64,000 bases of DNA, from assembly GCA_050011835.1 (NCBI GenBank), contig JBEKII010000001.1, positions 86,473-150,472 of the forward strand, given 5' to 3'. Below are positions 2,082-56,893 of the stretch, piece after piece. Each line of letters opens with the position of its first letter. The stretch's first letter is position 1. This DNA comes from Minisyncoccia bacterium. GTDB lineage: Bacteria; Patescibacteriota; Minisyncoccia; Phycocordibacterales; Phycocordibacteraceae. The position numbers and the translations under genes were made by a program. Below the pieces are notes generated by a model. That model did no database searches, had not been told where the DNA came from, and saw nothing but the letters and a program-made list of their open reading frames with translations.

Positions 2082-2093
2082 AATTATTTTTAG

Positions 2094-2177
2094 TGCGCCG
2101 GGTTGGATTCGAACCAACGTAGCCCAGAGGGCGACAGGTTTACAGCCTGTTGCAATTGACCGCTCTGCCACCGACGC
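2094..2177 (-). tRNA. tRNA-Tyr (anticodon GTA), long variable arm
   Basis: Manual fold: acceptor GCGTCGG/CCGGCGC with one G-U pair; D stem GCAG/TTGC; anticodon stem ACAGG/CCTGT with loop CTGTAAA; variable arm GCCC-TCT-GGGC; T arm GTTGG-TTCGAAT-CCAAC; discriminator A. CCA is not encoded. Confidence 0.8.
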
Positions 2178-6620: not shown

Positions 6621-8484
6621 TTACGGTTTTTCTTTAAATTCCGCATCCACAGGCCCGGTGGATTCAGGAGGATTTTGTCCACCACTATCGCCCGAAGGCG
6701 GAGTTTGGTTCTTCATCATCGCCTCGCCGATTTTCATAAGCATTTGCGAGAGCGCGTCAGTCGCGCCTTTAATCGTTGACGGATCTTCGCTATTGCGTGC
6801 CGTCTTCAGAGCGTCAATTTTATCCTGCACCTCCTTCACCACTTCGGCACCGGCCTTTGCGCCATTTTCTCTTATCGCCTTTTCGGCTGCATAAATAGCT
6901 TGGTCGGCAATGTTGCGCGCTTCAACAAGTTCTTTACGTTTCTCATCGTCCGCCGTATGCGCTTCGGCATCGGCTTTCATTTTTTCAATATCGTCTTTAG
7001 AAAGTCCAGTTGAGCCGGTAATCTTTATTGATTGTTCTTTGCCGGTCGTTTTTTCTTTTGCTTTCAATGTCAAACGTCACTTCAATTTGCGGCATGCCGC
7101 GCGGCGCCGGCGGTATTCCATCCAACATAAATTTCCCGAGCGATTTGTTATCGGCGCTCATGGCGCGCTCGCCCTGCGTGATGTGAATCTCAACCGAGGG
7201 CTGATTATCTGCCGCGGTGGAAAAAGTTTGCGTGCGACTGGTTGGGATCGCCGTGTTGCGCTCAATGATTTTCGTCGCAACGCCACCCATTGTCTCTATG
7301 GCGAGCGAGAGCGGAATGACATCCACGAGCAAAATATCTTTGACATCGCCCTGGAGAATGCCCGCCTGAATGGCGGCGCCGACGGCGACCACTTCGTCCG
7401 GATTGACGCTCATATTCGGCTTCTTGCCGAAGAACTTCTCAACCTGCGCCTGGATCGCGGGCATACGCGTTTGGCCGCCAACGAGAATAACTTCGTTAAT
7501 TTCTCCTATTTTAAAAGGTGAGGCCTCCATCGCGCGCCTCGTGATAGTCATTGCGCGTTCAATGAATTCGCCCGCGAGGTCTTCAAGTTTCGCACGTGTC
7601 ATCTTAATGAGCATGTGGCGCGGGCCGGAGGCGTCGCTCGTGAGGAATGGAATATTAATTTCCGTTTCCATCGCACTAGAGAGTTCTATCTTCGCCTTTT
7701 CGGCGGCTTCGTCCAAGCGCTGGCGCGCGAGCGCGTCGGAACGCACATCAATGCCGCTTTCCCTTTTAAACTCATCCGCGAGCCAGTTGATAATTTTTTG
7801 GTCAATGTCCTTGCCGCCCAGATGCGCATCACCGTCGGTACTTTTCACTTCAATCACGTCACCGCCCACATCAAGCACGGAGATGTCAAACGTGCCGCCG
7901 CCGAAATCAAAGACCGCGATTTTCTCATCTTTTTTCTTGTTGAAACCGTACGCGAGCGCGGCCGCCGTCGGCTCATTAATAATGCGCTTGACTTCAAGGC
8001 CGGCAATCTGCCCCGCGGCCTTGGTCGCGCTGCGCTGGTCGTCGTTAAAATATGCAGGAACAGTGATGACCGCCTCGGTTATTTTTTCGCCCAGTTTCGC
8101 TTCGGCATCGGTTTTTAATTTTCCGAGGATCATCGCCGAAATTTCTTCGGGGCGGTACCATTTGTCCGTCATTTTTACTTCAATGCCGCCGTTGTCGGTC
8201 TTGCGCATTTCAAAAGGAACTGCAGCCCTATCCTTCTGGACCGCCGGCTCATCAAAACGATGGCCAATAAAGCGCTTGATTTGATAGATGGTGTTGAGCG
8301 GATTCGTAACCGATTGTCGCTTGGCAAGCGTGCCGACGATGCGCTCGCTATTCTTCCCTACCGCGACGATAGAAGGAGTCGTGCGCGCGCCCTCGGCATT
8401 CTCCAGGACACGCGGCTCGCCGCCTTCCACAATCGCCATCGCAGAATTCGTCGTGCCTAAATCAATGCCAAGAATTTTTGCCAT
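6621..8484 (-). CDS. dnaK: molecular chaperone DnaK, split by an apparent 1-nt frameshift (ORF pieces 6997..8484 and 6621..7073)
   Basis: The N-terminal piece reads [24 protein letters not shown]... through ...[16 protein letters not shown]. The C-terminal piece continues [33 protein letters not shown]... The frames switch inside the minus-strand A-rich run GAAAGCAAAAGAAAAAACG around 7047-7060. Confidence 0.85.
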
Positions 8485-29609: not shown

Positions 29610-32438
29610 TTATACCACAAGGTTGACAATCTTGCCTGGAACATAGACCACGCGCGCTGGCTCCTTATCTCCAAGTGCGGCAATTACCGCGGGCAGTTTG
29701 AGGGCCGCGGCTAACGCTTCGGCTTCGCTTGCCTCGCTCGACAACCGAATGGTACCCCGCTTACGGCCAGCAACTTGTACGACAATTTCATTTTCAGTTG
29801 CAGCAGATAAAGAAGCGACTGGCCATGATTGTTGATGTACGCTTCCTTCCCCGCCAAGTTTTTCCCAGAAATATTCGGCGAGATGCGGTGCGAATGGCGC
29901 GAGCATAATAACGAATGATGGGAGCACGGCTTTCGGGACAATTTCTGTGGTTTCAAGTTCATTCACAAGAATCATCAAAGCCGCGATACTCGTATTGAAC
30001 TTAAATCGATCGCTGTCTTCGGCAATTTTAATGTTTGCGCGCGCAATGGCTTTTTGAATTGAGCCCGGTATCTCGGTCGTATCGTACGCGCGTCCGACGA
30101 GCCGTACGGTGCGGTCAAGAAATTTACGCATTGCGGCGACTCCTTCTAAATTCCATAGATAACTCCCCGATTCATTGTAAGGGCCAATGAACGCGAGATA
30201 CATGCGCACCGCATCGGCGCCATATTTCTGCACGAACTCATCGGGATTCACCACGTTTCCTTTGGACTTGCTCATTTTCCGGCCATCCGAGCCCATGATG
30301 AGCGCACGATTGAAACGCTCCGCGAACGGCTCTTCAACCGGCACGAGAGCGAGGTCATAAAGCGCGTGTGTGAAGAAACGCGAGTAGAGAACATGCATCG
30401 TTGTATGCTCGCTTCCTCCCGAGTAGCGATTTATCGGCAACCATTTTTCCATCAGCGCCGCATCAGAAAAATTGTACTTATCTTTTGAGTCAAGATATCG
30501 GAGAAAATACCATGAAGAGTCCACAAAGGTATCAAATGTGTCATATTCCGGCGTCCACCCTTCGCCGAAAATTTTTGTCACGCGCTTCCGCAATTCTTTT
30601 GAAGAAGCCAACGGGGCTTTGCCGGTCGGCTTAAAGTCAACATCGGTCGGCAAGAGCCAAGGTAAATGTTCGGCGGGAATCGCGTGCGGCTTCCCTTTTG
30701 GGTCATACACAATCGGTATTGGACAGCCCCAATAGCGCTGACGGCTCACGAGCCAATCGCGGATGCGGTATTGCGTTGCCTTCTCGCCCCCGACGGCTTC
30801 CACGATGTCCCATTTGGCTTCTTCGCTGTTGCGTCCGCTAAATTCACCTGAATCAATAAGAATGCCTTGCTCCGTATATACATCTATGCCGGTACGAATA
30901 CGATTGCGAATGAGCTCTATTTCAGAATGTTGGATGCGCACGGTCATAAATTCTTCGGCAGTAAGCCAGATGACTTCATGTTGCTCAGTTTCTTTCGCAG
31001 CGACAGGTTTGCGCGCATTGTCAACTAATTCAAACAAAAGCATTGAATTGCGGGCGATGCGGTTGACGCCTTTATGTGCCGCATAAAACTCGGCTTGCGC
31101 GTCACCGCCGAGTTTGCGCACAAAACGCACGTCTGTGTAGCCGGTCTCTTCGGCAATTTCGCGTTTAGCTGATGCAACAATATTTTCCCCTTCTTCAATG
31201 CCGCCCGTGACAAACGTTGTCCACGGTTGTTTTTTCCACTTCAGACAAAGATAGCGATTCGTTTTGGGATCAAAAACGACATCAATTGTTGCGCGACGAG
31301 GGACAACTTCCTTCCCGGGCTGATGCGGATTTGTCGGGTCCGGCAAGCGCGGCATAATGACATCCCGAATTGGCAGATTAAACTTTTTTGCGAATTCAAA
31401 GTCGCGTTCGTCGTGCGCGGGAACCGCCATCACCGCGCCGGCGCCGTAGGAGCCGAGAACGTAGTCGGCAACGTACACGGGAATTTTTTCCTTTGTTGCG
31501 GGGTTGATGGCTGAAATGCCTTCAAGACACACGCCGGTTTTTTCTTTATTCTCGCTACGCTCCCGTTCGGTTTTTTTATTCGTTGCGCTGACATATTCCT
31601 TAATCTGTTTTTTATTTGAAACAGCGGATAACAAAGATGAAACAAGCTGATGTTCAGGCGCGAGCACGACATACGTCGCGCCAAAGATAGTGTCTGGCCG
31701 TGTCGTGAACACTTTAATTTTCTCGTCACGACCAGCAATCGGGAATTCCAGATACGCACCTTCGCTCTTCCCGATCCATGCGCGCTGCGCTTCTTTTATC
31801 TCCTCACGCCACGGGAGCGTGTTCAAGCCGGCGAGAAGACGTTCGGCATAGTCGGTAATCTTAAGAAACCATTGTGTAAGCCGCTTCTCCTCCACCGCCG
31901 TACCGCACCGCTCGCAGCAACCGTCTATCACCTGCTCATTAGCAAGTACGGTTTGGTCTTTCGGACACCACTTGACCGGCGCCTCGCGACGCTCGGCGAG
32001 TCCATGCTCAAAAAGTTTTTCAAAGAGCCATTGTGTCCATTGATAAAAATTTGGATCGCACGTGACCACCTCTTTGCTCCAATCAAAAGATGCGCCCATT
32101 GTTGCGAGTTGCTCGCGCATCCGCGCCATATTCTTATACGTCCACTCTCTCGGATTGGCATTGTGCTTTATGGCGGCGTTTTCGGCAGGAAGACCGAAGG
32201 CGTCAAAACCAATTGGGAAAAGGACATTCTTCCCTCTCGCGCGCAACATCCGCGCATAAATATCAGTCACCGCGAAAGCATACCAATGCCCAATGTGGAG
32301 ATCTCCCGAAGGATACGGGAACTCAACGAGTAAATAATAACGCTCTCTTGATTCATCGGTAAGATTGGCCGAATAGAGACCGAGTTTTCTCCACTTCTCC
32401 CGAGCCGCTTTCTCAATTTTTGAATGATCGTATGTCAC
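29610..32438 (-). CDS. leuS: leucine--tRNA ligase with a NUDIX hydrolase domain inserted after the CP1 editing domain
   Basis: HIGH (PYPSGDLHIGHWY), the editing-domain T-rich region (TTRPDT), AHDERDFEFA and KMSKSKGN are all present. Between LPIRDVI and GILIDSGEF lies a ~160-aa insert with a textbook Nudix box GGIEEGENIVASAKREIAEETGY. Confidence 0.9.
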   Translation of the reverse strand: MTYDHSKIEKAAREKWRKLGLYSANLTDESRERYYLLVEFPYPSGDLHIGHWYAFAVTDIYARMLRARGKNVLFPIGFDAFGLPAENAAIKHNANPREWTYKNMARMREQLATMGASFDWSKEVVTCDPNFYQWTQWLFEKLFEHGLAERREAPVKWCPKDQTVLANEQVIDGCCERCGTAVEEKRLTQWFLKITDYAERLLAGLNTLPWREEIKEAQRAWIGKSEGAYLEFPIAGRDEKIKVFTTRPDTIFGATYVVLAPEHQLVSSLLSAVSNKKQIKEYVSATNKKTERERSENKEKTGVCLEGISAINPATKEKIPVYVADYVLGSYGAGAVMAVPAHDERDFEFAKKFNLPIRDVIMPRLPDPTNPHQPGKEVVPRRATIDVVFDPKTNRYLCLKWKKQPWTTFVTGGIEEGENIVASAKREIAEETGYTDVRFVRKLGGDAQAEFYAAHKGVNRIARNSMLLFELVDNARKPVAAKETEQHEVIWLTAEEFMTVRIQHSEIELIRNRIRTGIDVYTEQGILIDSGEFSGRNSEEAKWDIVEAVGGEKATQYRIRDWLVSRQRYWGCPIPIVYDPKGKPHAIPAEHLPWLLPTDVDFKPTGKAPLASSKELRKRVTKIFGEGWTPEYDTFDTFVDSSWYFLRYLDSKDKYNFSDAALMEKWLPINRYSGGSEHTTMHVLYSRFFTHALYDLALVPVEEPFAERFNRALIMGSDGRKMSKSKGNVVNPDEFVQKYGADAVRMYLAFIGPYNESGSYLWNLEGVAAMRKFLDRTVRLVGRAYDTTEIPGSIQKAIARANIKIAEDSDRFKFNTSIAALMILVNELETTEIVPKAVLPSFVIMLAPFAPHLAEYFWEKLGGEGSVHQQSWPVASLSAATENEIVVQVAGRKRGTIRLSSEASEAEALAAALKLPAVIAALGDKEPARVVYVPGKIVNLVV

Positions 32439-33593: not shown

Positions 33594-34325
33594 CTACCCT
33601 AGGTCTCCTTTATCTTTTATGCAAGATGGGAAATCAGATAACTCGCATATTTTTTCAACAATTTTTTGTAAAGAATCCGGTCGTTCATCGAGCCATTTTG
33701 CCAAGGAATGTGTCGCGCCTTCCACAATTACTATTTCCCTGGACTTTGCATTTTGAGCAGAATCATAAATTTCCTCAATCACCTCATGCGGAACAATTTG
33801 ATCTTTTTCAGCCTTATATATCAAAAGATTATTTTTATAATTTTCTAAAATTTTCCAAGCATCGGTTTCCCGCCAACTGAAAGAACTCCTAATTATTTCT
33901 GTAAATGACGGTCCGAATGGAACGCCATAGGCCTTCGTTGCATACACAGCAGGAGCTAACAATATTAGATTTTTGACCTTATATAATTCTGTTAATTTGA
34001 TCGCGACATAACTACCCATACTCGATGCAACTATTGAGAGTGGCTGCGACACTTTCTGTGAATCAATGATGGCCGATGCTTGAGCAACTCTACTTTCCAG
34101 GGAAAATCCAGCCAAATTGCCTCCCGTTTCCCCGTGACCGATGAAATCAAAAGAACATGATGTAATTCCTTTGTTTGCCAAAAGGTTTCTTAATTGCTCG
34201 AACCTCTTTCTATCGCCCGAACCGGCTCCGTGAAGAAAAAGCCATTGAGGTTGAGTATCCGTATGGATGGTGTCGCCAGCCAGCACCATCCCATTAAAAC
34301 TGACTTTGAAAGATTTCCTTTTCAT
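33594..34325 (-). CDS. alpha/beta hydrolase
   Basis: HGAGSG oxyanion region and nucleophile elbow ASSMGS (GxSxG), plus a later D and H (EGATHS). 243 aa. Confidence 0.7.
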   Translation of the reverse strand: MKRKSFKVSFNGMVLAGDTIHTDTQPQWLFLHGAGSGDRKRFEQLRNLLANKGITSCSFDFIGHGETGGNLAGFSLESRVAQASAIIDSQKVSQPLSIVASSMGSYVAIKLTELYKVKNLILLAPAVYATKAYGVPFGPSFTEIIRSSFSWRETDAWKILENYKNNLLIYKAEKDQIVPHEVIEEIYDSAQNAKSREIVIVEGATHSLAKWLDERPDSLQKIVEKICELSDFPSCIKDKGDLG

Positions 34326-35194
34326 TGACGTAAAAAGTCGGCAAGTATAGTTGCCGTGGTTCGTATACTGTCATTATCAACTACGTTTGCGCCTTCTGAT
34401 ATACCGATTCTTCGAAAATTATGAGCCACTCCAGGAATGGTAGTGAATTTTATATTCGCCCCTTCATCCGACAATCGTTGTGCAAAAGTCTTATAGAAAT
34501 CTTGTATGTGTTTAGGAATTGGCGGATCATCTGCCTCAAAGAAACTAATGAAAATCGAACCGTCATTTTTTATATATTTTTCAAGTACGGGGAAAACAGG
34601 CGACTCAGCAACATTCCAATCTTCACGAATAATTCTACTAAAGGATTCTCCATACGGTATATTCTCTATACTTTTTGGAAATGCTGCGGGAGAAAGTAGC
34701 ACTATTTTAGGAACTTTTATTTCCAAGTTTTCTAATTGCTCAAGCGCATTAATGGCCATGTAAGCTCCGGCACTTGTACCGATGAGCGAAAGATTTGAGG
34801 ATTTTGTACGGTCATAAAAATATTTTGATGTTTCTACAAGAACTTCCGTTCGAGACTGAAAAGTTTCTTTTTCCCATTTGCCGGTTGAGCCGCCCGTAGC
34901 AGGCTGATTATATAAAAGACTTGATTCGGCCTGGTCAAGCATTTTGAGAGCGAGATGGCCATACAACTTATTTATTAGAGGTAACTTTTTACGACGTTCA
35001 GGATCGCGAGGGACACCTCCTACCATAGTTATTAACGGAGAATATTCTGGTCCGCGTGCCAACGCACACCTTATTTCTCTTCCTCCAATTACAACCTTCT
35101 CAACCTCAAACTTCCCGGTTTTTAACCACTCTATTTCTGACTGAGGAAGGTAATCCGCTCTGTTTCCCCCCTTTTCGTGTTTAAATTTTTCCAT
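34322..35194 (-). CDS. alpha/beta hydrolase (paralogue of 33594..34325)
   Basis: Nucleophile elbow GTSAGA, and a C-terminal GVAHNF His. There is an ATGA overlap with the downstream paralogue. RBS AAGGGAGAC. Confidence 0.65.
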   Translation of the reverse strand: MEKFKHEKGGNRADYLPQSEIEWLKTGKFEVEKVVIGGREIRCALARGPEYSPLITMVGGVPRDPERRKKLPLINKLYGHLALKMLDQAESSLLYNQPATGGSTGKWEKETFQSRTEVLVETSKYFYDRTKSSNLSLIGTSAGAYMAINALEQLENLEIKVPKIVLLSPAAFPKSIENIPYGESFSRIIREDWNVAESPVFPVLEKYIKNDGSIFISFFEADDPPIPKHIQDFYKTFAQRLSDEGANIKFTTIPGVAHNFRRIGISEGANVVDNDSIRTTATILADFLRQ

Positions 35195-41479: not shown

Positions 41480-41587
41480 GTGGGCCACGGTGGAGGACGT
41501 TCGAACTTTTCTCTTGGAAGAAAGGCACTCCCGCATGTTAACACGGCACGATTAGTCGTGCGACGATCTTTTCGATTTCCTCATAAG
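41480..41587. repeat. X-element copy 1 (~110 nt structured repeat, possible small RNA), in htrA 5' region
   Basis: ~90% identical to 44661..44782. On the minus strand it ends ...GTCCTCCACCGTGGCCCAC, and a 9-bp palindrome TTCATCTAG/CTAGATGAA sits at its distal end (41588-41611). Confidence 0.7.
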
Positions 41588-41679
41588 TTCATCTAGTGGG
41601 GTCTAGATGAAGCGTTGGATCTTTGACAGGCACAGTGATGGACTCAAAATTTGAAATGAGAGTATAATAATGCCCAAAC

Positions 41680-42156
41680 ATGGCAAGTATAACCTTCAGC
41701 AAAGAGGAATTTGATGCGGTAAAAGCAAAGGCAGAGGCAGACTACAAAAAAGTAGGGGAGGTACAATGTCCTTATCTGAACAGCAAAATTGCTTTCAATG
41801 CAAAAGGCTTGGATCATATAAAAATGAAAAAATGGAACCATGCTAGGAGTAAAGACGATCAATTCATGAGGCTTAAACTACTTCATTTGGCACCTAGTGT
41901 GCTTAAAGAATCTCATACTCTCCAGGGCATTGATCAAGGAAACAAAATGGAACGTATTAAAATTAATTCACGATGGGAATTTAAAATGGTTTTTGTTTCC
42001 TATTATGATTTCATAAGCGTCATATCTGGGTGCAGAATAAGAATTGTGGTTAAAAATATAGAAAATGGCCCCAATTACTTTTGGAGCATTATTCCTTATT
42101 GGAAACAAGGGAATTATCGTAGGGAAATGTTTGAGGGGAATCCAGAAGAGGATTAA
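41680..42156 (+). CDS. hypothetical protein (158 aa), low GC
   Basis: A plus-strand ORF inside the AT-rich island. TATAAT lies 12 nt upstream of the ATG, and a strong terminator follows the stop. Confidence 0.5.
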   Translation: MASITFSKEEFDAVKAKAEADYKKVGEVQCPYLNSKIAFNAKGLDHIKMKKWNHARSKDDQFMRLKLLHLAPSVLKESHTLQGIDQGNKMERIKINSRWEFKMVFVSYYDFISVISGCRIRIVVKNIENGPNYFWSIIPYWKQGNYRREMFEGNPEED

Positions 42157-42162
42157 CAAAAA

Positions 42163-42190
42163 ACCGCCACAACACGTGGCGGTTTTTCGG
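42163..42190. terminator. bidirectional rho-independent terminator
   Basis: AAAAA-ACCGCCAC-aaca-GTGGCGGT-TTTTT: a stem with A and T tracts on either side, lying between convergent 41680..42156 (+) and the SDR gene (-). Confidence 0.65.
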
Positions 42191-42403
42191 TGGCACCTGG
42201 CTACGGTTTATGTATTAACCGTGGGAGAACTAGGTCCTCACAAGTGCCTTGCCAGTATAACAAATATGGATGAGGATTTCAAGAAGTTGGGGATAATGAA
42301 AATATGCCTTAAAATAAGGCTCTCCGGTCTAGCTCAAAGTAGCTGCGGGTCTGCGGCTCTATCTTTTGCAAATTTTACGTCCTAGAATCTCATCACGGGT
42401 CAA

Positions 42404-43153
42404 TTAAGAACCCAACATTTCGGCTTCCTTCAAATAGATTTCTGTTGTTGCTGTATCACCACCGTCAATTGTGATCGTCGTCCCGTTTATGTAGCTTGAA
42501 TTATTGGAGAGGAGGAAAAAGACGAGCTGCGCGATATCCTCATAAGTTCCGTTCCTTTTAAGAGGATTCATATCAGCGGCTTCTTTGAGCAAATCTGGCG
42601 GAGCCTGCATGCCGTCTCCTATCCAGCCAGGAGCAATTGCATTCACACGTACCTTCTTTTTACTCAAGATAACCGCAAGACTCTTGGTGAGATTAAGAAG
42701 TGCTGCCTTGCTTGCGGCATAGGCGATGCCATCGATACCACCTACCATCGCGTCAATGCTTGATATGTTGACGATAGATGCCCCCTCAGCTAACTGATTC
42801 TTGAGGCCATGGACGATAATGAGTGGCGTATTGAAGTTGATCTCGATAGTCCTATCCCAATCTTCCATCTTGAGATTATCAAATTCGATGGGTACGAATA
42901 CTCCAGCACTATTCACAATACCGTCGAAGCTGACACTGGAAAGCTCTTTGAGTAGTCGCATCGTATTATGTCGATCTGAAAAGTCGCATTGGAACACCTT
43001 TATGTTCTTGAGTTCTTCAACAAGTTTGTTTGCTTCCGCTTTGTTTGTGTTGTACACGCCGTATACAAAAAAGCCTTTCTGCACGAGAAGTCTGGCTGTG
43101 GCTTCCCCCATGCCACGAGATACGCCTGTAACGAGGATGTTTTTCATGATCAA
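42404..43153 (-). CDS. SDR family oxidoreductase (FabG-like)
   Basis: TGVSRGMGEATARLL (TGxxxGxG), NSAG, and the catalytic YAASKAAL (YxxxK). Confidence 0.85.
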   Translation of the reverse strand: MIMKNILVTGVSRGMGEATARLLVQKGFFVYGVYNTNKAEANKLVEELKNIKVFQCDFSDRHNTMRLLKELSSVSFDGIVNSAGVFVPIEFDNLKMEDWDRTIEINFNTPLIIVHGLKNQLAEGASIVNISSIDAMVGGIDGIAYAASKAALLNLTKSLAVILSKKKVRVNAIAPGWIGDGMQAPPDLLKEAADMNPLKRNGTYEDIAQLVFFLLSNNSSYINGTTITIDGGDTATTEIYLKEAEMLGS

Positions 43154-43286
43154 AGTATAGCAGAGTTCGAATTCTTAGATGGGTACATTTCTTTAAGTCT
43201 CGAACCGATTTTTAAAATGGCTTAGAATATGATGCTCTTCGGAGTCCGAACCTATCTCAAGTTAGCTGGGAGTAAAGGAATCGAAT

Positions 43287-43369
43287 CTTTATTTGGCTTA
43301 TATTTATATAATTGATTTAAGAGTTTAAGAAGGGAGAATTTGCCCAAAAGCGCAATTTTACCTACCTAT
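43287..43369. repeat. S-element copy (~80 nt AT-rich intergenic repeat)
   Basis: CTTTATTTGGCTTATAT...TTAAGAGTTTAAGAAGGGAGAATTTGCCCAAAAG.GCAATTTTACCTAC, ~85-90% identical to 44585..44660 and 46732..46808. Confidence 0.75.
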
Positions 43370-43434
43370 ATGGTGGGCCACAGTAGAGGACGTTCGAACT
43401 TTTTATCGAGAAACAGAAAACCTTGCAATTTAGA
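43370..43434. repeat. X-element partial copy (3' ~35 nt conserved, ends ...CTGTGGCCCACCA on minus strand)
   Basis: TGGTGGGCCACAGTAGAGGACGTTCGAACTT matches the 3' end of the X elements. It begins 1 nt after the stop of the exonuclease gene. Confidence 0.65.
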
Positions 43435-43435
43435 A

Positions 43436-43942
43436 TTATAATATGATCTTTCGTAAAATATCAGCAGCAATCCTACAATCTTCTAGGGCATTATGAAGTT
43501 CTCTGGGTTTTGCTCCGAATTCCCTAAAGATCTCCTCTGAACGCAGACTGCCACTATACCCCTTTTTTAGCAGGTGGATATAGGCGACAGGCCAGATATC
43601 TAAAATATGATAATCATACTGCTCCCAGGTTATTCCCGCCGCATTTATAATTTTCTTAAAATGCGTTATGTCTAAAGTCGCCGCCCAGGATCCGATAAGA
43701 ATGTCTGTTCCGAACTTTTCAAAAATCAGTCGTCCAACTTCCGCTTGCGAGGGAGCACCCTTCAACGTATCTTGAGATATACCCGAGATAACATTAACTT
43801 CACCCTTGAGATCGGCAAAAATATACGAAGAGAAGTTATCTATTTCATTCAAGGTTTCTTTATCTAAAAGTACCGCTCCGATTTGATTCGGTTCCGGTCT
43901 ACCTTCAAAATCGATAAATAAAATGTTTTTTGCAAATTTCAT
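43436..43942 (-). CDS. DEDDh-type 3'-5' exonuclease (DnaQ-like)
   Basis: Exo I FIDFEG, Exo II-like region, and Exo III HNALEDCRIAA (H-x4-D). 168 aa and AT-rich. Confidence 0.65.
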   Translation of the reverse strand: MKFAKNILFIDFEGRPEPNQIGAVLLDKETLNEIDNFSSYIFADLKGEVNVISGISQDTLKGAPSQAEVGRLIFEKFGTDILIGSWAATLDITHFKKIINAAGITWEQYDYHILDIWPVAYIHLLKKGYSGSLRSEEIFREFGAKPRELHNALEDCRIAADILRKIIL

Positions 43943-43975
43943 ATGCTGGCTGCACAGTATAACACGAGAACTAAA

Positions 43976-44554
43976 TTAGGATTTCTCAAGCACACATAAC
44001 ACTTCATCAAAACCACCTTTAGAGATACCTTCGAAATGAGAGATGTGCCATTTCCCATTCTCAACTTCTCGGCGAAAACCATCTGAACTGAAGAAGCTTT
44101 GCCAATGTATGGGTGACTTTTGTTTCAGTCTGAAATTCACCCAGAAATCCAGTAGCGCAAGCTGTATTTTACCGAAGAAATTGTGGTATAACTCTTCGAC
44201 AAGAATAATGCGTTTTGAAGTAACGCGCCTCATTTCTTCTAAGAGCGCCTTCCGATCAAATGCGTGATGCAGCACATACGTGGCAATTGAAGTCTCGAAG
44301 GCATTGTCGTCGAAAGGCATTCGTCTCCCATCGTAGAGAATAAAATTCTTCACGTTGACGGCTTTTGGATGTTTAATGATTTCAAGCGACACAATTTTTA
44401 TCCCTGCCCTCTCTGCAAAAAATGAGAAGTGGCCCAAACCGCTACCAATATTCAGATTGGTATCGAGGAGATAAGGATGTATTCGTTCAAACCACTGTTT
44501 TTGATATTGCTGAATGAAGCTAGTTGCGTCCATTGGATGCAGTATATCTCCCAA
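43976..44554 (-). CDS. class I SAM-dependent methyltransferase
   Basis: Motif I LLDTNLNIGSGLGHF, post-I acidic residue (VSLEI), and motif IV-like DDNAFE. AT-rich. The start may be the internal ATG at MDATSF. Confidence 0.65.
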   Translation of the reverse strand: MGDILHPMDATSFIQQYQKQWFERIHPYLLDTNLNIGSGLGHFSFFAERAGIKIVSLEIIKHPKAVNVKNFILYDGRRMPFDDNAFETSIATYVLHHAFDRKALLEEMRRVTSKRIILVEELYHNFFGKIQLALLDFWVNFRLKQKSPIHWQSFFSSDGFRREVENGKWHISHFEGISKGGFDEVLCVLEKS

Positions 44555-44584
44555 AATATCCAGCTGGGGGTAAGGAGATCAAAC

Positions 44585-44660
44585 CTTTATTTTAGCTTAT
44601 ATAATTGATTTAAGAGTTTAAGAAGGGAGAATTTGTCCCAAAGTGCAATTTCTACCTACA
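44585..44660. repeat. S-element copy
   Basis: See 43287..43369. It is located between X-element copy 2 and the methyltransferase start. Confidence 0.75.
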
Positions 44661-44782
44661 TGGTGGGCCACAGTGGAGGACGTTCGAACTTTTCTCTTGG
44701 AAGAAAGGCACTCCCGCATGTTAGCACAGCACGATGAGTCGTGCGACGATCTGTTCGATTTCCTCACAGATTCATCATAAGG
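44661..44782. repeat. X-element copy 2 (full length, ends ...GTCCTCCACTGTGGCCCACCA on minus strand)
   Basis: ~120-nt element with an internal hairpin CACGA-CTCA-TCGTG and the palindrome GTTCGAAC, with a tRNA-like CCACCA terminus. Compensatory-looking changes relative to copy 1 occur in the hairpin region. Confidence 0.7.
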
Positions 44783-44894
44783 CTCACGAATGACGATACA
44801 AGAAAGGTAATTGTGCCTCATAAGGCAAAATTTAGTAAAACAAGATATCGGAGGAACTTCTCTATAATTAAAATAGCTTCCAACGTCGCACCCG

Positions 44895-45638
44895 CTATCG
44901 ACTGGCCGTTTCAGTCTTGGTATTCCATCTATAAAAATAATAGAACCAAAAATTCGTCCCGATTCTTTTAACAGAAAATCTATAATGAGAAAATTCTTTA
45001 ATCACTTTCTCTGAAAATGCAGAGGCAAAGGCGTAATCAGCCGACCGCTTCTTGGGATCCCATACGCCCCGCCTAACTCGGCCACGAGCAGTTGTATGGC
45101 AATTCGGGATTGCTATCAAGAGCTGCGATTCTCGTTTCAGTTTCTCATTTAAATCTTTTACAAAACGCTTAATTCCTTTACGCAGAGAGGTCGACGAAAT
45201 CGAAGTAATTGCAACAATTATATCAATGCTATTATTGCGAATCCTTCTTCTCTTTCCGGATACGACATCCTTCCCCTGAAATTTTCGGATGTCCCCTTTT
45301 ATGAATCGGATCTTCGGATAATCCTTATATGTATCAGCGGCATCCTTCAAAGAATCTTCGATGAGATCGCAGACAATAATATTCAAGTTTTTGAAAGGTT
45401 TCTTTCCGATCTTCTTTTGGATAAATTTAAGCTCGTAACCATTATTGACGCCAATATCGAGCAGGTGATCGCCTGGAGAAAATCGCATCCATTTGAGAGC
45501 TTGTTTCAAGCTCCGCTTTATGTCGGGGTTGGAATATAAAATCTTCTGGGCTTTCTGGTAATCGGATTCAGGACCGTATTTCTTCCTGTAATCCTCGGGT
45601 AAGCTTTTTTCCCTAATTATCTGCGATGTCCATTTCAT
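44895..45638 (-). CDS. SAM-dependent methyltransferase
   Basis: Motif I HLLDIGVNNGYE and an acidic post-I residue (IVCDLIED). 247 aa and AT-rich. Confidence 0.6.
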   Translation of the reverse strand: MKWTSQIIREKSLPEDYRKKYGPESDYQKAQKILYSNPDIKRSLKQALKWMRFSPGDHLLDIGVNNGYELKFIQKKIGKKPFKNLNIIVCDLIEDSLKDAADTYKDYPKIRFIKGDIRKFQGKDVVSGKRRRIRNNSIDIIVAITSISSTSLRKGIKRFVKDLNEKLKRESQLLIAIPNCHTTARGRVRRGVWDPKKRSADYAFASAFSEKVIKEFSHYRFSVKRIGTNFWFYYFYRWNTKTETASR

Positions 45639-45650
45639 AAAAAGATGAAA

Positions 45651-46634
45651 TTAATACATAGTAGTGCGGACGCGATGGAACGGGCGGGCAACGGCAGCTT
45701 TCTGCTTCGCGTCGAGCCAAAGATAATCGTTGATATCGATGGCATTTAATACTTTTTCTTTCTTGAAAAGATATCGCCTCATGTACTCAACAGCCCAAAT
45801 GGTCGTTGCCCGAATCTCGACTTCGTACGGCGAACCTGGCAAAATTTGCTTTTCTGAATCGACCAACGCGGAGAGCTCTTCGCTATAATGAAGAATCATA
45901 ATTTCACGCAATAATTGTGGCAATCGGTAATCGGCGGCGGCAGTAAGGCTGGAAACATTCTTCAAATTTCCAAGCGGCGGCTTCAACATCCTGCTTATGT
46001 CACCAATGAAAATCTGGGCTTTCTTCATGAAATACACTTTCTTTCCTTTGTAAGTCGCCTCATCCCGAAAAGCCGGAAAGGTCACGTATATATCTCCAAG
46101 AAGTTTTGCGGCATCATGATTTGCAGTTTCAATCATGCGAGCCAAAGAACCATCAAAGTTTCTACATATGATTTCGCAATTCTCCCTTAAGATACGGCAA
46201 CGTTCCGAAAAGATTGGAATTTCGACATCTTTGTTTATTATCTTATTGAGTTCTTCATCCGATATTTTGGAAAGATATTGCAAATTCAAAATTGGCAACT
46301 TGTTCTCGTAGGCGGCATATAGCGCCACATCTAGTCCCCATGAAGTCATATATTTCTTTCCTTTGTATTCAAAGAAATAATCCGGTGGACCCCAGTACGA
46401 GAAACTCAACGAGGAAAATACGAAGATGAAATTCAACAGCTCCATCTGGGTAAAAGCTGAGATGTCAGCCGGCCCAGCCAGGAGCCAAGGCTTAAGCTCG
46501 GCAATTTGTAGATTGTCCACGTATCGCTCGAGTTCTTTCTGATCAATAGAAACATGCTGGGCATGCTCAACGACAAATTTCGTTGATTCCAAGACTGAAT
46601 CGGATGCAAATGACTGGTGGGTATCTTGAGGCAT
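45651..46634 (-). CDS. DUF2419/Qng1-like protein (putative queuosine-salvage queuosine-5'-phosphate N-glycosylase/hydrolase)
   Basis: 327 aa. Segments FVFSSLSFSYW..YKGKKY.TSWGL, ERCRIL.EN, LFEGKKVYF.KKAQI and AADYRLPQ..R..L.YS match, from memory, the conserved blocks of eukaryotic Qng1 (C9orf64) family proteins. This needs an HMM check. Confidence 0.5.
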   Translation of the reverse strand: MPQDTHQSFASDSVLESTKFVVEHAQHVSIDQKELERYVDNLQIAELKPWLLAGPADISAFTQMELLNFIFVFSSLSFSYWGPPDYFFEYKGKKYMTSWGLDVALYAAYENKLPILNLQYLSKISDEELNKIINKDVEIPIFSERCRILRENCEIICRNFDGSLARMIETANHDAAKLLGDIYVTFPAFRDEATYKGKKVYFMKKAQIFIGDISRMLKPPLGNLKNVSSLTAAADYRLPQLLREIMILHYSEELSALVDSEKQILPGSPYEVEIRATTIWAVEYMRRYLFKKEKVLNAIDINDYLWLDAKQKAAVARPFHRVRTTMY

Positions 46635-46731
46635 AATGTTAAAAGAATTATAGCAAGATAAATAAATTAAAATCCATGAACCAAAAGCCCACCCAAGACA
46701 TCTCTAGCGCGTTTGGGAGAAGAGAATCGAA

Positions 46732-46808
46732 CCTTTATTTTGGCTTATATAATTGGTTTTAAAAGTTTAAGAGGGAGAATTTGCCCCAAAGTACAATTTT
46801 TACCTACG
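46732..46808. repeat. S-element copy immediately 3' of tRNA-Ala(TGC)
   Basis: The same ~78-nt element as at 43287 and 44585. Similarity extends ~10 nt into the tRNA 3' end (GTCCACCA versus GCCCACCA of the X elements). Confidence 0.75.
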
Positions 46809-46884
46809 TGGTGGACCCAAGCGGACTCGGACCGCTGACCCCCACATTGCAAATGTGGTGCTCTACCAGCTGAGCTATGGGCCC
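46809..46884 (-). tRNA. tRNA-Ala (anticodon TGC), CCA encoded; atypical T-loop (C at position 55)
   Basis: Acceptor GGGCCCA/TGGGTCC with G3:U70; anticodon arm CCACA-TTTGCAA-TGTGG; T arm AGCGG-TCCGAGT-CCGCT. The unusual T loop lowers confidence slightly. Confidence 0.7.
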
Positions 46885-46957: not shown

Positions 46958-47401
46958 TCATTTTTGACCAATTACTTGAAGTTGGATTAAGGCCTTAAAA
47001 GCATGTTCTGTTGCTTCGATAAGCGGAAACTTGGAATAATCTGAAATTGATACCCATTTGTAATCGTCATGATCCGTGCCAAGCTTAACTTCTGAATTTA
47101 TTGGTTCACACACAAAAAACATGCCGATTATCTGAATCTGTTCGCCCCTTACAACAGGTCTCCATTCGTCAACAAAAAATGGCCCGCCAATTTTTACTTT
47201 CATTCCAACTTCTTCCTTAGTTTCCCTTTCAATTGCTTGAGTAATAGATTCTCCAATTTTCACCTTACCACCAGGAAAGTCATACTTACCGTGGTTTGTC
47301 CCTCCATCATACTTATCGGATTCCTTAATAATTAAAACTTTGCCGTCTTTGATAATGACGGCGCGAACGGCAATAAATTGTTTTTGAATTGTTGGTTCCA
47401 T
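46958..47401 (-). CDS. NUDIX hydrolase
   Basis: Nudix box GGKVKIGESITQAIERETKEEVG. The start is placed at MEPTIQK; the 311-aa ORF-track version is an unsupported upstream extension into ddl. Confidence 0.8.
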   Translation of the reverse strand: MEPTIQKQFIAVRAVIIKDGKVLIIKESDKYDGGTNHGKYDFPGGKVKIGESITQAIERETKEEVGMKVKIGGPFFVDEWRPVVRGEQIQIIGMFFVCEPINSEVKLGTDHDDYKWVSISDYSKFPLIEATEHAFKALIQLQVIGQK

Positions 47402-53670: not shown

Positions 53671-55698
53671 TTATCTTGTCAAGGGCTTCTTACGCGAACT
53701 TTTCTTCAGTTCGTTCGCTTCCAATTTATAAATTTCATCGCGGATGAGGGCGGCGGTTTCGAAGTCAAGCTGCGACACGGCTTCTGACATTTCTTCCCTT
53801 TTACGTTTGATAAACGCGGCAGGGTTGTCTTTGTACGCAAGCGTGTCCAGCGCTAAAAGTTCATCAATCGTTTTTTGGTGTTCGGTGCGCATGGATGCCG
53901 CGATGTCATGAATCTCTTTGTGGATAGTTTTCGGCGTGATGTGATGCTTTTTATTATAAGCAAGCTGAAGTTCGCGGCGACGATTCGTTTCAAAAATCGC
54001 TTTTTCAAGCGAACCAGTCATCACATCAGCGTAGAGAATCACGCGGCCCAAGACATTTCGCGCCGCTCTACCGATAGTTTGAATAAGCGAAACTTCACTG
54101 CGCAGAAATCCTTCTTTATCGGCGTCTAAAATGCCGATGAGCTCTACTTCGGGTAAATCAAGCCCTTCGCGTAAAAGATTGACGCCCACCAAAATGTCAA
54201 AAACGCCTTTGCGGAAATTGGAAAGAATATCAATGCGCTCAATCGTCTTCACATCCGAGTGGAGATATTCCGCTTTTATACTGCGCTTACGCAAGAATGC
54301 GGCGAGATCTTCCGCCATTTTCTTGGTCAAAGTCGTTGCAAGCACGCGCCCGCCGTTTTTGATAACTTTTTCGGCCTCATTAATGAAATCGGAAATCTGA
54401 CCTTGATACTGTTCCGTTTCGCTCACTCCGCGCACAACAAGTTCCGGATCAACAAGGCCAGTCGGACGAATGACCTGTTCTACAATCTGCTCAGAATGCG
54501 CGCGCTCGTACGGGCCCGGCGTCGCGCTTGTATAAATAACCTGTCCAATGCGCTCCTCAAATTCTTCAAAGGTAAGCGGACGATTGTCGCGCGCCGAGGG
54601 AAGGCGGAAGCCATATTCAATAAGCACGTCCTTGCGCGATTTGTCGCCCGCGTACATACCGCCGATTTGCGGGATCGTGACATGCGACTCATCGATTATC
54701 GTGAGAAAATCTTTCGGAAAATAAGAAAGGAGTGTATCCGGCGGCTCGCCCGCCTTCCTCCCGTCAAAGTGGCGAGAATAATTTTCAATGCCGCTCGTAT
54801 AGCCAAGCTCGCGAATAAGCGCGAGGTCGTGGAGTGTGCGGCGTTTCAACCGCTCCGCTTCAAGGGGCTTTTCTTCGCGTTTAAACTTCGCGAGCTGTTC
54901 TTCTAATTCCACCTTGATGTCCTCTATCGCGCGATTGCGCTCATCCTCGCTCGTAATAAAATGTTTGGCTGGAAAAACAAAAATTGATTTCGGCTCCGCC
55001 ATTTTTGTGCGCGAGATCGGATCAAGTTGGTCAATGCGTGCGATAGTGTCATTTTCAAATGTTATGCGATACAAAACGCGTTCATTGACCGGCATAAACT
55101 CAAGCGAGTTGCCGATGGCGCGTAATTGTCCCGGTTCAAGGTCGGCATTCGTCCGTTCAAAATAAATGTTAATAAGTTTTCGTATCAATGCCGCGCGACT
55201 TTCAATATTTCCCTTGGCAATTTTTACATGAACCTTCTCGTATTCCTCAGGCGAGCCGAGGCCGTAAATAGCCGAGACAGAGGCAACGATGATAACGTCC
55301 TTGCGCGTGAGAAGCGCCTGTGTTGCCGCGTGGCGCAAACGGTCAATCTCAGCATTTATCATCGCCTCTTTCTCAATATAGGTATCAGATTGCGCAATAT
55401 AGGCCTCCGGCTGATAGTAGTCGTAGTACGAAACGAAATAGTGTACCGCGTTCTCGGGGAAAAACTCCCGATATTCCTGCGCGAGCTGGGCTGCAAGCGT
55501 TTTGTTATGCGCGAGCACAAGCGTTGGCTTATCATACTTCGCAATAACATTGGCCATCGTAAATGTTTTCCCACTTCCGGTCACACCAAACAATGTCTGG
55601 TGTCGCGATCCGCGCGTGAGTCCTTCTTCAAGTTTAGAAATCGCCTGTGGCTGGTCCCCCGCTGGCGGGAAAGGAGTATGGAGTTTGAAATTAGCCAT
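53671..55698 (-). CDS. uvrB: excinuclease ABC subunit B
   Basis: Start at MANFKLHTPF. Walker A GVTGSGKTFT, helicase motifs, a beta-hairpin region (YYDYYQPEAY), and a C-terminal UVR domain (AALIRDEIYKL). Confidence 0.9.
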   Translation of the reverse strand: MANFKLHTPFPPAGDQPQAISKLEEGLTRGSRHQTLFGVTGSGKTFTMANVIAKYDKPTLVLAHNKTLAAQLAQEYREFFPENAVHYFVSYYDYYQPEAYIAQSDTYIEKEAMINAEIDRLRHAATQALLTRKDVIIVASVSAIYGLGSPEEYEKVHVKIAKGNIESRAALIRKLINIYFERTNADLEPGQLRAIGNSLEFMPVNERVLYRITFENDTIARIDQLDPISRTKMAEPKSIFVFPAKHFITSEDERNRAIEDIKVELEEQLAKFKREEKPLEAERLKRRTLHDLALIRELGYTSGIENYSRHFDGRKAGEPPDTLLSYFPKDFLTIIDESHVTIPQIGGMYAGDKSRKDVLIEYGFRLPSARDNRPLTFEEFEERIGQVIYTSATPGPYERAHSEQIVEQVIRPTGLVDPELVVRGVSETEQYQGQISDFINEAEKVIKNGGRVLATTLTKKMAEDLAAFLRKRSIKAEYLHSDVKTIERIDILSNFRKGVFDILVGVNLLREGLDLPEVELIGILDADKEGFLRSEVSLIQTIGRAARNVLGRVILYADVMTGSLEKAIFETNRRRELQLAYNKKHHITPKTIHKEIHDIAASMRTEHQKTIDELLALDTLAYKDNPAAFIKRKREEMSEAVSQLDFETAALIRDEIYKLEANELKKSSRKKPLTR

Positions 55699-56893
55699 AG
55701 GAGTAATCGCGAACGAAATTTTCGCGGAATTCGTCAAACCGCTCCTCAAGAATAGCTTGGCGCGCGCCGGCAACGAGATTCAAAATAAAACCGACATTGT
55801 GCATAGAAGCGATAATGGGACCAAGCATTTCACCGCTCCGTAGAAGATGCGCGACATAGGCACGAGTAAATTCTTCAACGCCAATAACGGACATTTCGGG
55901 ATCAAGAGGCGAAAAATCGCTGCGATATTTCTCGCCCTTGAGATGGATTAAACCGTACCTCGTGTAGATGGATCCGTGGCGGCCGAGTCGTGTCGGTGCA
56001 ACACAATCAAAAAGGTCCACGCCCGCTGCGATACTCGCGAGCATATCGCCTGGCTCGCCAATACCGAGACCATGTACCGGCATTTCTTCTGGCAATTCTT
56101 TCAACATAGCAAGTGCCGAATCTAATGAGTCGTCGCCATATTTCTTGCTGAACGAACCGCCAAGGCCGAAACCATCAAATCCCATGTCTGTTATCGTCTT
56201 CGCACTCAATCTACGCAAATCGTCAAACTGTCCTCCTTGCGCGATGCCGAAAATCGCCTGCTTCTTGTTCGCATTGATATTCTGCCGATGCACCTTCAGA
56301 GAACGCTGCGCCCAGCGATGAGTGCGTTCCATCGCCTCTTTCTGATACTCATACGATTCCGTCGGCGCGGTGCACTCATCAAAAGCAAAAAATATATCGG
56401 CACCGAGTGCGTGCTGAATCTCAACCGAGCGTTCAGGCGTGAAGCGATGCGGTGAACCGTCAAGATGCGAGGTGAATGAAACGCCTTCATCGTCAACGAC
56501 AGCGAGACGGCTGTGAGGAGTAATTATTTCATCTTCGCCATCGGCAGAAAATTTTGAAATGCCTTTCCCAAACGCGGCCCCAAGTGAAAAAACTTGGAAA
56601 CCGCCAGAATCGGTTATCGTCGAACCGCGCCAATTCATAAATTTCCCGAGGCCGCCGGCGTCTCGCACGATTTTTTCGCCCGGCTGGAGATACAGGTGAT
56701 AGGTGTTCGCGAGTACGACTTCGGCGCCGAGCTTTTTCAGTTCATCGGGAAGAATGCCCTTCACGCCCGCTTTGGTGCCTACCGGCGCGAAAGCGGGCGT
56801 ATGAATAACGCCGTGAGGAGTTTTGATAGCGCCGGCACGCGCACCGCTCCGCGGCACGCGCTTTTCTATGGTGAATGACATTGCGCCCATCAC
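55691..56893 (-). CDS. tgt: queuine tRNA-ribosyltransferase
   Basis: 400 aa. TIM-barrel QTR motifs: TDSGGFQV, the catalytic Asp in FAFDEC, and the C-terminal zinc-subdomain region around LGIGEPGDM...CVAPTRLGRHG. Confidence 0.85.
   Translation of the reverse strand: MMGAMSFTIEKRVPRSGARAGAIKTPHGVIHTPAFAPVGTKAGVKGILPDELKKLGAEVVLANTYHLYLQPGEKIVRDAGGLGKFMNWRGSTITDSGGFQVFSLGAAFGKGISKFSADGEDEIITPHSRLAVVDDEGVSFTSHLDGSPHRFTPERSVEIQHALGADIFFAFDECTAPTESYEYQKEAMERTHRWAQRSLKVHRQNINANKKQAIFGIAQGGQFDDLRRLSAKTITDMGFDGFGLGGSFSKKYGDDSLDSALAMLKELPEEMPVHGLGIGEPGDMLASIAAGVDLFDCVAPTRLGRHGSIYTRYGLIHLKGEKYRSDFSPLDPEMSVIGVEEFTRAYVAHLLRSGEMLGPIIASMHNVGFILNLVAGARQAILEERFDEFRENFVRDYSYG

Follow-up and report, generated by a model that had tools for sequence, protein, structure and literature searches.

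A Qng1-type nucleotide N-glycosylase on a strain-specific genomic island of a Minisyncoccia bacterium: a probable queuine-salvage enzyme with a deviant substrate pocket

In a 64,000-nucleotide stretch of a Minisyncoccia genome, hereafter the window (GenBank assembly GCA_050011835.1, contig JBEKII010000001.1, positions 86,473 to 150,472 of the forward strand), the gene at 45651..46634 on the minus strand encodes a protein of 327 amino acids (aa) that belongs to the Qng1 (Q_salvage/DUF2419) family of N-glycosylases, retains the catalytic residues of the characterized enzymes and lies on a strain-specific island 9.06 kb from the core gene for tRNA-guanine transglycosylase (TGT; 55691..56893, minus strand; PF01702, 413 bits). 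Judging from sequence comparisons and structure prediction, we put at roughly 60% the probability that this protein works as a nucleotide N-glycosylase of the Qng1 type, that its gene came in on a mobile cassette and that it frees a 7-deazaguanine base, most probably queuine from queuosine-5'-phosphate, for the core TGT.

According to this reading, the gene would have entered the genome of this bacterium, which belongs to the candidate phyla radiation (CPR), horizontally, together with a gene for an S-adenosylmethionine (SAM) methyltransferase-like protein, at a hypervariable spot 3' of tRNA-Ala(TGC). The enzyme would bind a 7-deazaguanine nucleoside 5'-monophosphate, the likeliest candidate being queuosine-5'-phosphate from scavenged or turned-over tRNA, as does Qng1 of Sphaerobacter thermophilus (StQng1), and would cut the N-glycosidic bond via Asp235 of the helix-hairpin-helix (HhH) motif, Lys204 and the carboxylate of the C-terminal Tyr327. 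The freed base would then be placed by TGT at G34 of tRNA-Tyr, tRNA-His, tRNA-Asn and tRNA-Asp, and a DEDD exonuclease encoded in the same island could plausibly supply the 5'-monophosphates. The parts of this scheme that we infer are which compounds are bound and released, how the enzyme and TGT work together here, and what, if anything, the neighboring methyltransferases and the exonuclease contribute.

The family assignment, which the initial annotation had based on blocks shared with eukaryotic Qng1, is borne out by a profile search, by sequence matches to solved structures and by the predicted fold. The product, which starts with ATG and is called identically by JGI and NCBI, matches the Pfam DUF2419 profile (PF10343, Q_salvage) over positions 8-285 of 285 with 240.1 bits (E 4.9e-71), far above the gathering cutoff of 25 and far beyond chance. 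It aligns end to end with StQng1 (7uk3/7u07; E ~1e-54, 34% identity) and over the full length with human QNG1 (7ugk; E 4e-43). The AlphaFold2 model, for which 40 homologues served as input (pLDDT 95.2, pTM 0.92), shows the two-lobe HhH-glycosylase-like fold; in Foldseek searches it superimposes on the StQng1 crystal structures 7uk3 and 7u91 with TM scores of 0.90-0.92 and root-mean-square deviations of 2.2-2.3 Å, and the best matches after StQng1 are HhH DNA glycosylases, a likeness of the Qng1 fold that has already been published (PMC9881137). No NCBIfam model matches the protein. The PHROGs collection yields nothing for Qng1 or for the two methyltransferase-like proteins encoded downstream of it, so that there is no sign of a phage origin. 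The protein is already on record at NCBI as a 'queuosine salvage family protein' of a Minisyncoccia (Patescibacteria/CPR) metagenome-assembled genome (MAG; MGD0328235.1), where the gene downstream is named 'class I SAM-dependent methyltransferase'. The assignment is therefore correct but not new; the gene family and its bacterial members are likewise already known.

In StQng1, D231 acts as the nucleophile, K199 and Y232 keep the ribose in place, the base is stacked between I203 and W302, and the active site is completed by E267, H316 and the carboxylate of the C-terminal Y323; the C-terminus has to be free (PMC9881137). All eight residues are kept in the window protein: D235, K204 and Y236, the base sandwich of I208 and W306, and E271, H320 and Y327, the last of which directly precedes the stop codon. 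The protein was compared with 123 homologues and, out of 2,649 representatives of the family derived from 1.84 billion proteins, with the ~150 nearest, the pattern scan being built on an alignment of 12 sequences since another of 40 was too diverse; throughout this set, the catalytic positions are invariant or nearly so.

The island occupies 41480..46808, between tRNA-Ala(TGC) (46809..46884, minus strand), whose 3' end points toward it, and a core gene for a Trypsin-like protease. It was delimited by comparison with 80 metagenome contigs that encode a Ddl protein 49-86% identical to that of the window. These contigs share the backbone TGT-UvrB-UvrA-UvrC-Ddl-tRNA-Ala(TGC)-variable stretch-(Trypsin)-tRNA-Val(CAC)-tRNA-Pro, in which tRNA-Ala is a conserved landmark and the stretch beyond it is variable, and the insertion is absent in all 80: none contains the genes for Qng1, the methyltransferase-like proteins P247 and MT192, the exonuclease ExoT or the short-chain dehydrogenase/reductase (SDR) of the window. 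In eight relatives (L086-L088, L095, L101, L104, L110 and L111) tRNA-Val starts within ~200 nucleotides (nt) of tRNA-Ala, at a distance of ~100-115 nt in seven of them. Because the backbone is kept and the island genes are missing in the relatives, the insertion of ~5.3 kb is strain-specific, its site 3' of tRNA-Ala(TGC) is hypervariable, and tgt belongs to the core. The initial annotation had placed the Qng1 gene in an island and tgt in the core of a reduced-genome lineage, and all three statements agree with these data, the organism being represented by a Minisyncoccia/Patescibacteria MAG.

The base composition is in agreement with an island but is not decisive: the island genes have GC contents of 0.36-0.45 against a window mean of 0.48 (standard deviation 0.048), and equally low values are found outside, in a HAD gene (0.35), the region 33.6-35.2 kb (0.40) and a NUDIX gene (0.38). 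A misassembly or chimera is ruled out, given that an assembly made independently from a different sample repeats the gene order from Qng1 through Trypsin and FolD and confirms the distal junction, and that fragments of the island occur in three further datasets. Like tRNA-adjacent genomic islands in general, the insertion lies directly 3' of a tRNA gene, has strain-specific cargo and has counterparts with different cargo in relatives, and its lower GC, although not decisive, agrees with this; unlike them, it has neither an integrase or transposase nor an exact tRNA-derived attachment (att) duplication, and internal repeats of ~95 and ~114 nt separate its three gene modules. Scans of the island open reading frames (ORFs) with Pfam and PHROGs detected no integrase, transposase or other recombinase, and the internal repeats are not copies of the 3' end of tRNA-Ala, the alignment reaching only ~55%.

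Within the island, Qng1 is paired with P247, a divergent class-I SAM-methyltransferase-like protein of 247 aa (44895..45638, minus strand) whose gene starts 12 nt past the Qng1 stop codon. The P247 family is tiny, with eight clusters in 5.8 billion proteins, and its members are 37-50% identical with 43 invariant columns; a structure search with P247 retrieves only generic class-I methyltransferases (TM 0.5-0.58) and no specific structural neighbor. In the locus L004, a Qng1-P247 pair 57% and 50% identical to the two window proteins, with the genes 11 nt apart, lies downstream of tRNA-Gly(CCC), and in L170 and L171 an IS110-family transposase borders on the pair, with two different arrangements; some P247 relatives stand without Qng1. 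The recurrence of the pair in unrelated contexts is direct evidence that it moves as a unit. The window Qng1 itself is isolated: its closest full-length relative is 57% identical, all others are at or below 48%, and the nearest homologues are scattered over CPR bacteria and DPANN archaea. Taken together, these comparisons support the view that Qng1 and P247 form a two-gene cassette that was acquired horizontally, as the initial annotation had supposed for the Qng1 gene. The mobile, strain-specific state of a Qng1 gene in a CPR genome appears to be new.

The presumptive partner, TGT, keeps the equivalents of the catalytic D102, D156 and D280 and of Cys158 (TDSGGF, AFDEC and LFDC motifs; numbering of the Zymomonas mobilis enzyme), and the window also encodes a tRNA-Tyr(GTA) (2093..2177, minus strand), of the GUN-anticodon class that is modified by TGT. 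Pfam scans of the ~50 ORFs of the 64-kb window, which is part of a 276,909-bp contig, detected no queA/G/H, queC/D/E/F, YhhQ/QPTR or QueT; the combination of tgt with the lack of queC/D/E/F in the window thus holds as first described. Further support for bacterial Qng1 working with TGT, independent of the window, comes from three other genomes of bacteria (L079, L084 and L042) in which qng1 and tgt are adjacent. In L079 and L084, Qng1 has the canonical substrate pocket and TGT the motif GGSVG (Val233Gly-like), and in L042:62-4725 the order is tyrosine integrase, DnaJ, Qng1 (of the A-N-D pocket type described below), NYN-domain RNase and TGT (Cys158Val, GGLSVGE). The position of this RNase between the two queuosine genes parallels the presence of the DEDD exonuclease in the window island.

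A number of observations weigh against queuine as the product, the first of which come from the substrate pocket of Qng1. In StQng1, the guanine-like edge of the base is anchored by a hydrogen bond to D298, a residue stated to be conserved in the family, the cyclopentenediol pocket is made up of W48, Y93, W94 and W299, and the phosphate site consists of R80, K233 and Q306 (PMC9881137). In the window protein, the anchor D298 is replaced by Asn302, followed by Asp303, and the pocket aromatics Y93 and W299 by Ser98 and the same Asp303; one pocket tryptophan is kept (W94, here W99), and another (W50) is found near the position of W48. The phosphate-binding R80 corresponds to Asp85, and the complete set R80/K233/Q306 to D85/R237/K310. 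The paired change D85/K310 is confined to the subclade of the window protein (three sequences), the rest of the clade having K/Q, and by sequence a basic phosphate site probably persists. The mapping of the pocket is not an alignment artefact, considering that the window protein aligns here without gaps with both StQng1 and human QNG1, and that human QNG1 has the canonical D, Y and Y at the positions of D298, W299 and Y93; the model has a helix, 298-311, with Asn302, Trp306 and Lys310 all on the same face.

The altered pocket is not peculiar to the window. Two pocket types are found among the homologues: the canonical Y-D-W/Y, present in StQng1, human QNG1 and a basal grade, with eukaryotic Qng1 being of the form Y-D-Y/W, and [S/T/A]-N-D, which is present in ~96 of the 123 homologues and in 66 of the ~150 nearest representatives and which, in a rough neighbor-joining tree, makes up a single large derived clade with the consensus I-N-D-x-L-W around the anchor. 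Relatives of the window Qng1 are encoded in at least 183 GTDB species genomes, and the best 80 of these belong nearly all to Paceibacterota, Parcubacteria, Uhrbacteria, Saccharibacteria and similar bacteria or to Nano-, Woese-, Pace- and Iainarchaeota. The bacterial and archaeal sequences are interleaved in the tree, such that the nearest neighbor comes from the other domain for 14 of 83 labelled sequences. The clade is thus common in DPANN archaea, a group without a general record of queuine use, and this too counts against a queuine-specific function; queA, queH and tgt, but not DUF2419, have been noted in DPANN (Castelle et al. 2021). The variant of the pocket that extends over the clade lacks two of the recognition features that have been called conserved in Qng1 and appears to be new.

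The remaining adverse observations concern TGT. The pocket of preQ1-type TGT is GGLAVG(E), with the Leu231/Ala232 peptide switch, Val233 and Glu235 (PMC3660597, PMC11570991), and the signature of queuine-type TGT is GG[LS][AS]G, in which Val233 is changed to Gly, frequently together with a change of Cys158 to Val (PMC11570991). The window TGT has GGSFSKK, which fits neither motif and is without Glu235; its residue at position 233 is Ser, which is smaller than Val but is not Gly. In addition, the zinc motif CxCxxC is replaced by MSVIGVE. Both features extend beyond the window: TGT of all relatives has GGSF[S/E/N]K and no equivalent of Glu235, and the zinc motif, which the more distant relatives L141, L146, L150 and L164 keep as CGCYxCQ, has been lost in a hypervariable, indel-rich stretch across the subclade of the window (L086-L131). 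Moreover, TGT does not depend on Qng1, given that close relatives with no Qng1 at this locus encode the same TGT; since all relatives lacking Qng1 at the locus share the GGSF.K motif, a correlation of the odd TGT pocket with Qng1 was rejected. The sequence of the TGT pocket neither confirms nor excludes queuine as the substrate and is independent of the presence of Qng1. Thus, from the original proposal of queuine salvage, the family, the island, the core tgt, the horizontal origin and the reduced lineage stand, whereas queuine is a base that we infer, because the pockets of Qng1 and TGT both deviate from those of the characterized enzymes.

The clade shows a further peculiarity in its gene associations. 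In the surroundings of the 80 CPR/DPANN Qng1 loci, with the outer flanks as an internal control, the density of NUDIX genes per 10 kb is 0.23 within 2.5 kb of Qng1 vs 0.03 in the outer flanks (p=0.002), and that of class-I methyltransferase genes is 0.40 vs 0.06 (p=2e-4). Pfam searches identify NUDIX-Q_salvage fusions in L011:9500-10960 and L032:4541-6049 and Methyltransf_11-Q_salvage fusions in L063:8307-9998 and in the family representatives P0024, P0189, P0190, P0197 and P0270; clusters with the orders methyltransferase-NUDIX-Qng1-methyltransferase and NUDIX-Qng1-methyltransferase occur in L012:8769-11890 and L026:2710-4711, respectively. The literature searched contains no paper that ties Qng1 to NUDIX or methyltransferase fusions, and this recurrent fusion and clustering appears to be new.

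The main alternative, possible if rather unlikely, is that fold and chemistry are the same and the specificity has shifted, such that the [S/T/A]-N-D subfamily of CPR and DPANN would free preQ1, preQ0, an archaeosine-type base or a methylated derivative from a nucleoside 5'-monophosphate, in this organism for a TGT of the Cys158 type; the NUDIX and methyltransferase domains linked to Qng1 would serve upstream or downstream steps of one small pathway. This would accommodate the replacement in concert, in one derived clade, of the residues around the 7-substituent (Y93 by S/T/A, D298 by N and W299 by D), the abundance of the clade in DPANN archaea, and the fusions to, and enrichment of, both types of neighbors. 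An acidic residue, Asp303, stands where an aromatic residue of StQng1 makes cation-pi contacts to the 7-aminomethyl group (PMC9881137), the window TGT retains Cys158, which favors preQ1 affinity in the Z. mobilis enzyme (PMC3660597), and a transporter encoded beside the qng1 of one member of the Acidobacteriota carries preQ0/preQ1 rather than queuosine, a finding that its authors call unexpected (PMC11130926). However, the residues that hold and stack the base and the ribose are unchanged, an Asp near the 7-amine could equally recognize the secondary amine of queuosine, and in L042 an N-D-type Qng1 is accompanied by a TGT with the eukaryote-like Cys158Val. Furthermore, preQ1 and preQ0 nucleotides are, to our knowledge, not known as abundant environmental substrates.

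In a more elaborate form, which we regard as doubtful, the [S/T/A]-N-D clade, horizontally shared between CPR bacteria and DPANN archaea, would contribute the Qng1-like glycosylase to a salvage module of three enzymes not described before, the other two being a NUDIX hydrolase and a SAM methyltransferase. The repeated gene fusions and clustering are the reason to consider such a module. It would act on a 7-deazapurine nucleotide, perhaps of the preQ1, preQ0 or archaeosine type or a methylated derivative, in place of queuosine-5'-phosphate or alongside it, and would feed non-canonical TGTs such as the GGSFSK enzyme of this lineage, which is without the zinc motif. If this is true, the NUDIX partner would offer a kinase-independent route to the 5'-monophosphate substrate.

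The window itself has the order NUDIX, tRNA-Ala, Qng1, methyltransferase-like gene, Methyltransf_11 gene and DEDD exonuclease, as in the NUDIX/methyltransferase clusters elsewhere. Its NUDIX hydrolase (46958..47401, minus strand; 147 aa, GC 0.38), encoded between Ddl and tRNA-Ala, is, on sequence grounds, probably a resident accessory gene, because L109 has a 73% identical homologue without Qng1; on account of this homologue and of weak similarity to the Qng1-fused NUDIX domains, its link to a Qng1 module is possibly coincidental. MT192, a Methyltransf_11 class-I methyltransferase (43976..44554, minus strand; 185 aa in the JGI call), bears a weak resemblance to the methyltransferase domain with which Qng1 is fused in genomes other than this one. 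A specific kinship of P247 or MT192 with the fused methyltransferases was rejected, the similarity being at the level of the fold only (hhalign of the alignments A4 vs A5 97%, A4 vs MT192 69%).

An improbable explanation is a glycosylase with a general part in nucleotide salvage or house-cleaning, apart from tRNA modification. Together with NUDIX and methyltransferase partners, it would degrade modified purine nucleotides, by which organisms subsisting on nucleic acids that they scavenge would recover ribose-5-phosphate or clear non-canonical nucleotides. NUDIX hydrolases are typical of house-cleaning, and the fusions and clustering with them would fit such a role, as would the DEDD exonuclease in the same island, the presence of the gene in archaeal MAGs and its sporadic, mobile distribution without co-inheritance with tgt. 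Yet the base-stacking pair of Trp and an aliphatic residue and the full catalytic set of Qng1 are strictly conserved, qng1 adjoins tgt in the three genomes mentioned above, and every characterized member of the family is specific for queuosine nucleotides (PMC9881137). Finally, it is very improbable that the gene is inert cargo, that is, a gene that hitch-hikes or decays in a variable region, or part of an assembly chimera, functionless here: it does lie in a low-GC accessory region beside a tRNA gene and is absent from all relatives, but the reading frame is uninterrupted, has its full length and encodes every catalytic residue as well as the obligatory Tyr at the C-terminus, its partner P247 is conserved across the family, and the same gene order recurs in the independent assembly, with fragments in the additional datasets.

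With queuine salvage retained as the preferred reading, the closest characterized counterpart is StQng1 (PDB 7UK3, 7U1O and 7U91; Hung et al. 2023, PMC9881137), which belongs to the same Pfam family, has the same two-lobe HhH fold (TM 0.9), a length of ~325 aa and the same set of catalytic, base-stacking and C-terminal Tyr residues, and comes from a bacterium that is likewise expected to salvage, not make, the queuosine base. The window protein differs from it by the low identity, by the substitutions D298 to Asn302, Y93 to Ser98, W299 to Asp303, R80 to Asp85 and Q306 to Lys310, and by its location on a mobile cassette with a methyltransferase-like gene. Human QNG1 (C9orf64; PDB 7UGK) and Qng1 of Schizosaccharomyces pombe share with it the family, the fold, the catalytic residues and the presumed release of a base for TGT; in these eukaryotes, however, the pocket is the canonical one and TGT is a QTRT1/QTRT2 heterodimer with a Val/Gly pocket, whereas the window TGT is of the bacterial type, with Cys158 and GGSFSK.

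The direct salvage of queuine of the Chlamydia trachomatis type, as summarized in PMC11570991 (Yuan et al. 2019), is similar in that it combines a reduced genome, tgt and the use of exogenous queuosine-derived compounds; the window is without enzymes for the conversion of preQ1 to queuosine in its 64 kb. In that summary, the chlamydial system consists of a TGT with GG[LS][AS]G and queuine import by QPTR, with no Qng1, whereas in the lineage of the window TGT has GGSFSK and has lost the zinc cysteines, and no transporter was found in the window. In the QueK/QueL system of the Clostridioides difficile type, a hydrolase likewise releases the base of queuosine so that TGT can use it again, but QueK belongs to an unrelated nucleoside-hydrolase family and acts on the nucleoside, after which QueL converts queuine to preQ1; neither protein was found in the window.

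Queuosine, a micronutrient for tRNA, passes from one organism to another, and the locus bears on the question of how modified tRNAs are maintained in symbiotic bacteria and archaea that are ultra-small and produce hardly anything on their own. If the queuine-salvage reading is right, the capacity for queuosine salvage in CPR bacteria can be a mobile trait at the level of the strain, not a trait of the lineage. The large CPR/DPANN branch of Qng1, with its remodelled specificity pocket and its recurrent NUDIX and methyltransferase fusions, is not discussed in the literature searched, and the partner TGT of the lineage falls outside both published specificity signatures. The locus could reveal a new route of 7-deazapurine salvage and refine the sequence rules by which 'Q makers and users' are predicted in microbiomes.

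The other cargo of the island comprises ExoT, a DEDD/RNase_T-type 3'-5' exonuclease domain protein of 168 aa (43436..43942, minus strand), a FabG-like SDR (42404..43153, minus strand) and a hypothetical protein of 158 aa (41680..42156, plus strand; GC 0.36). The cargo found in relatives at the same tRNA-Ala(TGC) spot is different: it includes Peptidase_S74 (endosialidase-chaperone) tail-fibre-like, PhoH-PIN and NMO-like proteins (L099:11632-13854, L106:8971-10413 and L091:12392-13822) as well as hypothetical proteins.

Two kinds of repeats are interspersed with the island genes. Repeat A (~95 nt) lies directly upstream of Qng1 on the gene strand (46715..46808), with other copies upstream of MT192 (44567-44662) and of the SDR gene (43274-43372). 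Element B (114 nt; 44663..44776), which occupies the place that tRNA-Ala has beside the first copy of repeat A, recurs as a 93% identical copy at the distal border of the island (41480-41593) and as a 31-nt copy at 43373-43403; the 31-mer is present in three copies vs zero expected. Several explanations for these repeats were rejected. A decayed tRNA, an att site or another RNA does not fit element B, which has no match in Rfam, a fold z-score of -0.84 and a similarity to tRNA-Ala of ~55%. Repeat A was rejected as a promoter cassette, being unflagged in a sigma-70 scan in which promoter-like sites are at chance level. Nor do the repeats represent the native tRNA-Ala/Trypsin spacer, as blastn finds zero copies in any related locus.

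Outside the island, two low-GC patches may be further accessory insertions, one with genes for an alpha/beta hydrolase and a hypothetical protein (33594-35194, GC 0.40) and the other with a gene for a HAD hydrolase (4547-5155, GC 0.35). The leucyl-tRNA synthetase of 942 aa (29610-32438, minus strand) contains a NUDIX domain (residues ~382-501) inserted after the editing domain. The DnaK ORF (6621-8484, minus strand) encodes only 495 aa, covering positions 1-475 of the 599 of the HSP70 profile, and overlaps an ORF of 150 aa in another frame (6621-7073), which may reflect a frameshift or a sequencing error in dnaK.

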